Origin: Candidatus Omnitrophota bacterium | GTDB lineage: Bacteria > Omnitrophota > Gorgyraeia > Zapsychrales > Zapsychraceae | Direction of reading: 5' to 3' | DNA: 29,844 bases | Assembly (NCBI GenBank): GCA_030634235.1 | Contig: DAOWBD010000001.1 | Span: 1-29,844, forward strand | Shown: one piece after another, positions 17,633-17,786 of the stretch | Layout: every line of letters begins with the position of its first letter | Numbering within the stretch: the stretch's first letter is position 1 | Notes under the pieces: generated by a model | Told to the model about the DNA's origin: nothing | Seen by the model: the letters and a program-made list of their open reading frames with translations, nothing else | The model's database searches: none | Made by a program: the position numbers and the translations under genes

Positions 17633-17668
17633 CGGCGAGGCTTTTCAACAGGAAACAGACGGAGATTA

Positions 17669-17749
17669 ATGGTGAAGCTCCACGCGCAGTTCCGCAGCGT
17701 GTTTGTTTACAACAACATCAAGAAAAAACAAGCCGCGAGGACTGTTTGA
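17669..17749 (+). CDS. Candidate 26-aa small ORF MVKLHAQFRSVFVYNNIKKKQAARTV
   Basis: ATG in the left arm, GGAG 4 nt upstream, TGA at 17747-17749. No plus-strand promoter recognised. Confidence 0.25.
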   Translation: MVKLHAQFRSVFVYNNIKKKQAARTV

Positions 17750-17766
17750 GCATGGAGTTTTACCAT
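17707..17766 (-). CDS. Candidate 19-aa hydrophobic small ORF MVKLHAQTVLAACFFLMLL
   Basis: ATG in the right arm, 20 nt downstream of the TonB-like gene stop and on the same strand as the operon. TAA at 17709-17707. Confidence 0.35.
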   Translation of the reverse strand: MVKLHAQTVLAACFFLMLL

Positions 17767-17786
17767 TAATCTCTGCCCAAACAACC

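Follow-up and report, generated by a model that had tools for sequence, protein, structure and literature searches.

A 116-nt hairpin in an Omnitrophota genome as a probable single copy of an apparently undescribed, cross-phylum repeat family

The long intergenic hairpin at positions 17660 to 17775 of the window (the whole 29,844-nucleotide stretch of Candidatus Omnitrophota DNA that was analyzed) is, as a reading we hold to be reasonably probable, a single and likely stranded copy of a widespread noncoding repeat, selfish mobile DNA of the REPIN/MITE type. The hairpin repeat family to which it belongs crosses phyla and is apparently undescribed. For the window itself the outcome is deflationary, an inserted repeat with no hidden peptide pair, toxin, or switch.

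The hairpin and its parts

The initial annotation had described an inverted repeat whose arms open twin mini-ORFs and which folds as one long hairpin, burying either start codon and carrying no U-tract. Both ORFs and both arms were recovered. The arms of a 27-nt inverted repeat (17662 to 17688 and 17747 to 17773) are 85% complementary, and pairing reaches past them to form the single hairpin that had been proposed, spanning 116 nt (17660 to 17775). Both ATGs lie inside a 23-bp stem of the predicted fold, and no intrinsic terminator was predicted at the hairpin. As plus-strand RNA the element folds at −57.9 kcal/mol, compared to −26.6 ± 3.1 kcal/mol for shuffled sequences (z = −9.96, equaled by none of 200 shuffles), and as minus-strand RNA at −52.1 kcal/mol (z = −7.0). 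This stability is far above chance.

The plus strand bears the conserved boxes of the family in the forward sense. On that strand the whole 116-nt element is delimited by the fold, by a covariance model, and by its absence from the corresponding spacer of relatives; the model (R1) matches 17658 to 17780 with 84.1 bits and an E value of 6e-15. The two arms of the outer stem, copy-specific in sequence, occupy 17660 to 17682 on the 5′ side and 17753 to 17775 on the 3′ side, both assigned from the repeat and the fold, and arms equivalent to the 5′ one covary at other loci. Between the arms lie a 5′ conserved box, CGCGC-AGTTCCGCAG, of junction subtype b (17683 to 17697, from the alignment), a variable inner stem-loop (17698 to 17734, from the fold and the inner-stem complementarity of the family), and a 3′ conserved box, GCGAGGACTGTTTGAGCA (17735 to 17752), recognized by recurrence of the pattern GAGGACTGTYYGAGC in the order. 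The arm sequence of this copy is absent elsewhere in its own genome (a MAG, 74% complete), and in JGI metagenome contigs the arm pattern gave one chance match and none as an element. The comparison with Rfam that the initial annotation had proposed came back empty, with a covariance-model search of the whole window returning nothing relevant at E values up to 10.

A repeat family shared across phyla

The family was detected through short exact matches to 17734 to 17752, which were found repeatedly in other genomes of the order. At these other loci the conserved boxes sit inside different stems. All copies share a plan in which a long palindromic outer stem of copy-specific sequence closes the element on both sides and contains, in order, a 5′ box, (GCG)AGTTCCGCAG, a variable inner hairpin, and a 3′ box, GAGGACTGTYYGAGC. 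Among 151 genomes of the order, 42 contain the 15-nt 3′ box, at about 170 places in all and at no more than 13 in any one genome, while the reversed pattern, used as a control, had no match in the same set.

A scan with the two-box pattern over one genome per GTDB species recovered at least 120 stretches. The host labels among the matches listed include Adlercreutzia and other Eggerthellaceae (with many copies), Collinsella, Bdellovibrio, Lachnospiraceae, Myxococcales, Polyangia (Myxococcota), Planctomycetales (Planctomycetota), Omnitrophota, Latescibacteria, Hydrogenedentota, and Longimicrobiales (Gemmatimonadota), and the distribution across genomes is patchy. All 61 copies that were aligned, drawn from many phyla, carry the motif AGTTCC.CAG without change, and the core of about 28 nt is unchanged in at least 8 phyla whose host GC contents run from 38 to 73%. 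The CGCGC junction seen in the window is present in 30 of 162 copies. The pattern of the family had no match in 2.9 million viral contigs, and a phage vector was rejected on this count. A search of 14 loci from at least six phyla against Rfam 15 returned no family at E values up to 1 or 0.1. In a search of a full-text paper library, 14-mers of the core were unmatched and the matches to the 11-mer were unrelated primers only.

Covariation and strand polarity

Covariation was measured in an alignment of 61 diverse copies anchored on the boxes, with the stem register (i + j = 138) set by hand. All 22 pairs of the outer stem change on both sides. Double-sided change was counted in 387 cells, compared to 175 ± 13 in shuffles, and the covariation score of 0.384 (0.146 ± 0.010 in shuffles) was reached by none of 500 shuffled alignments. 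In total, 72% of outer-stem cells are paired, compared to 40 to 54% when the partner is shifted by one column. The inner stems are complementary too, with Watson-Crick pairs at 1,492 of 1,545 aligned positions in 162 copies. The GC content of the arms tracks that of the host (r = 0.81 over 38 to 73% GC), and the core stays constant. Among eight core pairs that were scored, six are constant and two deviate by unpaired cells only. Two core pairings can be drawn, one joining AGUUCC to G(A)GGACU, which is the minimum-energy choice in about 120 of 162 copies, and one joining GUUC to GAGC plus GCAG to CUGU; because the core never varies, the two are indistinguishable.

The outer stem is also polar. 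Mismatches of the G·U type number 161 on the box strand versus 58 on the other strand, a ratio of about 2.8 to 1, and the polarity is equal for copies lying sense (17:6) and antisense (45:16) to neighboring genes. Among 116 copies with distinct arms, a sign test gave 55 versus 21 (P = 1e-4). The window copy conforms, its two own arm mismatches being G·U on the plus strand. A strand-biased mutation process, instead of selection, could account for this excess.

Signs of mobility and the search for a mobilizing partner

Several features of the copies bear on how they spread. Genome G100 has an inverted pair of copies, separated by 3.8 kb, that are 94% alike across 90 nt, and one deltaproteobacterial MAG contains at least eight copies that are 85 to 97% alike. 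Copies were found in both orientations inside housekeeping operons, and genes bracketed by close inverted pairs of copies include purEDM, glyA, nrdR, recG, and similar genes. Relative to neighboring genes, as judged from rough ORF calls, 36 copies are antisense-tandem, 19 sense-tandem, 20 convergent, and 12 divergent.

Sites also turn over. In the nrdR-glyA spacer (L059:6975-7160 versus L058:4960-5140), genome G116 carries an element in the opposite orientation and with different arms, and a remnant of a G100-type 5′ arm lies beside this new element. This arrangement suggests a replacement in G116, or an insertion beside an older copy. In another spacer, the inner parts of the G100 and G121 copies are nearly identical, but their arms, each perfectly self-complementary, are only about 50% alike.

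Two further observations concern the surroundings of copies. In one deltaproteobacterial MAG, the hairpin lies at several loci (L061, L063, L083, L091, L121, L149, and L177) within a longer shared unit of about 320 to 470 nt, so that composite repeats containing the element exist. The spacer filled by the family in G100 and G121 is occupied by long-hairpin repeats of different, unrelated kinds in the sister species G108 (L215:1295-1500, with arms GTCATTGCGAGGACGA...TCGCAATGAC) and G103 (L217:2088-2241), and some spacers thus seem to be hotspots for differing hairpin elements.

The reading as selfish DNA is preferred because of this patchy spread, the near-identical copies, the copies in housekeeping operons, and the turnover of sites. 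In this reading, the box-bearing strand would fold on its own and serve as the single-stranded intermediate by which the element spreads; the invariant core, or internal loop, would be the site recognized by a putative trans-acting mobilizing factor.

Candidates for such a factor were sought. Y1_Tnp domains occur in 113 of 151 genomes whether or not these carry the element, and no Y1_Tnp was found in three carriers (G010, G025, and G031). A covariance-model search of 18 Y1-transposase loci, 12 of them RAYT-like genes from element-rich genomes, found no flanking copies. With co-occurrence uninformative and 0 of 18 Y1 loci flanked, a RAYT/Y1 transposase was rejected as the partner. No TnpA or TnpB gene adjoins the copies. 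When 2,968 ORFs located up to 2.5 kb from copies were clustered all against all, the families that emerged were exclusively of housekeeping genes and paralogous reductases, and a recurrent neighbor gene was likewise rejected.

Direct repeats at stem ends, a sign of target-site duplication, were no more frequent than in shuffled pairings among the 92 copies within reach of the stem-extension routine (67 others fell outside it), and the copies have no conserved termini, their outer arms differing even within one genome. At the window locus the ends show a degenerate likeness of 9 to 10 nt (GGAAACAGAC versus CCAAACAAC) and no TA flanks. The initial annotation had reserved the name MITE for the case of many dispersed copies with target duplications. 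The dispersed copies exist across genomes, but with no conserved ends, and no target duplication above control in the copies analyzed, the element does not appear to be a classical MITE either.

Two ideas about the origin of the stems were also considered. Insertion of a small core into a pre-existing host palindrome was rejected, since relatives show no stem where the element is missing, and palindromes with the arms of the G100 copies but no core are absent from G100; the arms in that genome are not a separate host repeat family. For arms copied from neighboring DNA, no arm-like sequence was found in the spacers of the relatives, which are too diverged for a firm verdict.

Weighing against selfish DNA, then, are the mobilizing protein that was not found, the lack of conserved termini, the lack of target duplication above control, and the lack of a source copy with the same arms in the source genome (74% complete) or in JGI contigs. 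A core that is identical across phyla is, in addition, unusual for REP/RAYT or MITE systems.

A structured RNA as the alternative

The alternative that survives best, although we consider it unlikely, is that the family represents a structured RNA, or a ribozyme that cleaves or processes itself, in which the invariant internal loop would be the active site and the stems the scaffold. About 28 invariant nucleotides between two freely covarying helices would suit such a molecule, as would the restriction of the two variable pyrimidines (YY) of the 3′ box to U or C and a G·U excess that is strand specific and independent of host genes. Identity of the core over host GC contents of 38 to 73% and at least 8 phyla would not need a co-transferred protein, and it fits intrinsic RNA activity at least as well as it fits selfish DNA; hammerhead and twister motifs would offer a parallel for the patchy, multicopy spread. 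However, the flanks of copies contain no conserved promoter or terminator, and with copies in either orientation to genes, many would be untranscribed on the box strand barring chance promoters. The Rfam searches, which include ribozyme classes, gave no match. Of the readings offered in the initial annotation, a structured noncoding RNA with G-U wobbles on the plus strand came closest, and strong stem covariation and the strand-specific G·U excess can now be added to it.

A broader statement would cover both catalysis and mobilization. It is possible, if doubtful, that the family is an uncatalogued class of folded nucleic acid whose loop of about 28 nt acts as a catalytic RNA core or as an enzyme docking site. 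If a docking enzyme exists, it would be widely shared and would act on folded single strands, a new mode of mobilizing hairpin DNA.

The insertion site and its neighbors

The genes neighboring the hairpin are all on the minus strand. Upstream lies a gene for a 248-amino-acid protein resembling the TonB C terminus (17787 to 18533; TonB_2, 19.4 bits, below the cutoff of 22), whose stop codon is 11 nt before the hairpin foot at 17775 and 13 nt before the 27-nt arm (17773). Downstream is a gene for a 153-amino-acid protein assigned to DUF1844 by its domain (17088 to 17549). A promoter-like site for the DUF1844 gene (17604 to 17632, minus strand) consists of TTGACA, a 17-nt spacing, and TG-n-TATTCT and is conserved in the genus. 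The site is left intact by the element, which stops about 30 nt short of the −35 box on the upstream side.

Within the spacer, conservation across four genomes of the genus is confined to this promoter-like site, with its extended −10 element TGATATTCT; the 5′ leader of the DUF1844 gene down to the start codon is partially conserved too. A weak plus-strand promoter-like site at 17568 to 17596 (TTAATA, 17 nt, AATAAT; 9 of 12 positions) could, if it is used, start plus-strand transcripts that enter the element and run antisense to the leader of the DUF1844 gene.

The order of the tonB-like and DUF1844 genes is kept in three genomes of the same genus, with protein identities of 57 to 78% and the promoter retained. 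In these three congeners the spacer measures about 105 to 110 nt, compared to 237 nt in the window, and the block missing from the alignment (about 120 to 125 nt) is the hairpin. No stem is present at these empty sites. Assembled contigs from cold-seep and marine-sediment metagenomes were aligned to the region. The hairpin-bearing strain was recovered from three cold-seep samples, belonging to two studies, and its hairpin had one orientation throughout. In related, more abundant strains from the same metagenomes, 17617 or 17632 is joined to 17786 to 17789 by 36 to 43 unrelated letters. The same gene order without the 120 to 125 nt, in both congeners and co-occurring strains, indicates that the hairpin is an insertion, placed in this lineage only, between the stop codon of the tonB-like gene and the DUF1844 promoter.

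The copy appears isolated. Neither BLAST nor the covariance model found a second one in the source genome (a MAG of 1.14 Mb, 74% complete), for a count of one, and a covariance-model search of four congeners found none.

The same contigs revealed variation within the DUF1844 gene. In the most abundant co-occurring strain, 126 nt (17380 to 17505, with joints at 17379 and 17506) are swapped for 123 unrelated letters, making part of the acidic N-terminal region a hypervariable in-frame segment.

A minus-strand transcript of the tonB-like operon would either stop within this −52 kcal/mol hairpin, which lacks a U-tract, or continue across it. The hairpin sits shortly before the next promoter and may there stabilize the 3′ end of the mRNA or form a partial barrier; REP and ERIC sequences provide the analogy for this possible local effect on mRNA stability or readthrough (PMC3184786).

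A locus-specific regulatory hairpin (a terminator, attenuator, or operator) that evolved in place between the tonB-like operon and the DUF1844 gene is very unlikely. Its position 13 nt past a stop codon, with a conserved −35 box about 30 nt further on, together with the very stable fold on the mRNA strand, would be fitting for such a device, but the same spacer is without a hairpin in all close relatives examined, the U-tract is missing, and the core is common, letter for letter, to hundreds of unrelated loci. As far as the sequence comparisons go, family membership largely refutes this explanation.

Mini-ORFs in the arms

The plus-strand mini-ORF of 26 codons (MVKLHAQFRSVFVYNNIKKKQAARTV, 17669 to 17749) and the minus-strand mini-ORF of 19 codons (MVKLHAQTVLAACFFLMLL, 17707 to 17766, with its ATG at 17766), both unconserved in the family, are best treated as by-products of the palindrome and not as genes. 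The initial annotation had drawn attention to five differences between the arms, at 17674, 17677, 17683, 17686, and 17689 versus their partners, that are all in third positions and synonymous. They are, yet the pattern is no evidence of coding, because three of the five (17683, 17686, and 17689) fall in a family-conserved junction. This junction, made up of CGCGCAG toward the 5′ end and TTGAGCA toward the 3′ end, is a family subtype found in 29 other copies from unrelated hosts in which the same ORFs are absent. The remaining two, the G·U mismatches already mentioned, are the only ones unique to this copy.

A palindrome reads alike from either end, so a shared N terminus requires merely an ATG in an arm. 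Some ATG-initiated ORF begins in an arm in 73 of 162 copies. Twin ORFs sharing at least five residues occur in five of the 162 (MGFVLWS, MSPCSV, MDKIHLNTPF, MRGAL, and MVKLHAQ), and since these peptides are all different, the mini-ORF peptides are unconserved. Neither MVKLHAQ nor the peptide tails are conserved in any of the 161 other family copies. The stop codon of the plus-strand ORF sits on the YY positions of the 3′ box, where TT, CT, TC, and CC all occur.

Two coding readings had been put forward. The first, an inverton or shufflon in which a 56-bp core flips and swaps the C terminus of a peptide read through from the operon, found no counterpart in the metagenomes, where contigs from three samples contained one orientation and no strand-change joint (rare variants would escape such a search). 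No recombinase gene is on the contig and no resolvase is in the genome (74% complete), which encodes two Xer-like tyrosine recombinases, both on other contigs; the tonB-like gene, moreover, stops at its own codon 13 nt before the hairpin. The second, a type I toxin-antitoxin locus, is not supported, given the lack of peptide conservation in the 161 other copies and the unrelated sequences of the five twin-ORF cases.

Real convergent mini-proteins, whether a toxin-antitoxin-like pair or C termini switched by inversion, are therefore highly improbable as an explanation: both ORFs exist and share MVKLHAQ with synonymous differences only, a GGAG lies 4 nt before the plus-strand ATG, and the minus-strand peptide is hydrophobic, but a palindrome yields equal N termini automatically, three of the five differences are fixed core features of the family, no other copy keeps the peptide, the plus-strand stop codon falls on varying positions, both start codons are buried in the 23-bp stem, and neither an inversion joint nor a local recombinase was found.

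Comparison with known elements

Several known systems share part of the plan of this family, the nearest being REP/REPIN, ERIC and other MITEs, and IS200/IS605 derivatives. Type I toxin-antitoxin loci such as Ibs/Sib and Ldr/Rdl resemble the window copy in having a hydrophobic ORF of about 19 codons, a start codon sequestered by pairing, and an antisense overlap. They differ in that the peptide here is unconserved, the pairing is the family-wide palindrome, and no promoter is defined on either strand.

The ends of IS200/IS605 elements, and their gene-less derivatives (PATEs), are recognized strand specifically as imperfect single-strand hairpins, a property that the family would share, and they leave no target duplication, which was not seen above control in the family either. 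IS200/IS605 elements have two separate, small subterminal hairpins, one at the left end and a distinct one at the right, and use a conserved target of four or five nucleotides; the family, in contrast, has a single long hairpin whose core is internal, and its flanks showed no conserved sequence.

ERIC sequences (IRU, a 127-bp enterobacterial MITE), Correia, and RUP elements are, like the family, imperfect palindromes of about 110 to 130 nt located in transcribed intergenic regions in either orientation. RNA hairpins of ERIC alter the stability of upstream mRNA, and in ERIC-type and other MITEs the terminal inverted repeats are conserved and TA or another target is duplicated (PMC3184786); the family shows no conserved terminal inverted repeats, and no target duplication above control in the copies analyzed. 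The short ordered boxes of ERIC, AAGCGAGT..TCCCCAG and GACTG..GAGCGAA, resemble the AAGCGAGTTCCGCAG and GACTGTYYGAGCGAA of the family. Genuine ERIC copies were retrieved for comparison, the ERIC center being confirmed in 5,426 of 5,426 Escherichia coli genomes. Covariance model R1 had no match on a genuine ERIC copy, the Smith-Waterman score was 24 compared to 22.4 ± 2.3 for shuffles, and an nhmmer search with an ERIC profile HMM gave 2.5 bits compared to 5.8 bits for shuffled sequences. Judged by these scores, homology of the family to ERIC is unproven. The closest resemblance seen was in copies from a Lachnospiraceae MAG (L060:30-137, L068, and L175), where the 5′ arm and box TGCAGGGATGCCACAAAGCGAGT agree with the left half of E. 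coli ERIC, TGCAGGAAGGCGACAAGCGAGT, at 20 of 23 positions, a score not above shuffle controls.

REP sequences, units of 20 to 40 bp tagged by GTAG or CGTC, are conserved within a genome and differ between species (PMC3733652). In common with REP, BIME, and REPIN sequences, the family consists of short, noncoding, palindromic intergenic repeats that are multicopy, patchy between strains, and present or absent between close relatives; both form single-strand hairpins, are strand-polar, and occupy 3′ or intra-operon spacers of housekeeping genes. The target duplication that REP sequences lack was not seen above control in the family either. A REPIN consists of two inverted copies of one REP, whereas the conserved part of the family is two non-complementary central strands. 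Unlike REP, the family has a core that is identical across phyla and stems that are copy specific. The boxes (GCG)AGTTCCGCAG and GAGGACTGTYYGAGC carry no GTAG or CGTC tag, and the conserved part is not palindromic. In RAYT systems the RAYT gene is flanked by the repeats (a REPtron), while in the family neither flanking nor co-occurrence was found.

For genome annotation, these elements create spurious small ORFs and long palindromes in many genomes, which a covariance model would allow to be masked, and cultivable carriers (Adlercreutzia and Bdellovibrio) make direct testing possible. From gut Actinomycetota to the cold-seep bacteria of the order represented in the window, two short non-complementary strands are the same letter for letter, the stems follow base pairing and not sequence, and the strand polarity ignores host transcription. 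This combination of traits differs from that of classical REP and MITE elements and implies a conserved reader of folded strands, or an intrinsic RNA activity, unnamed so far.
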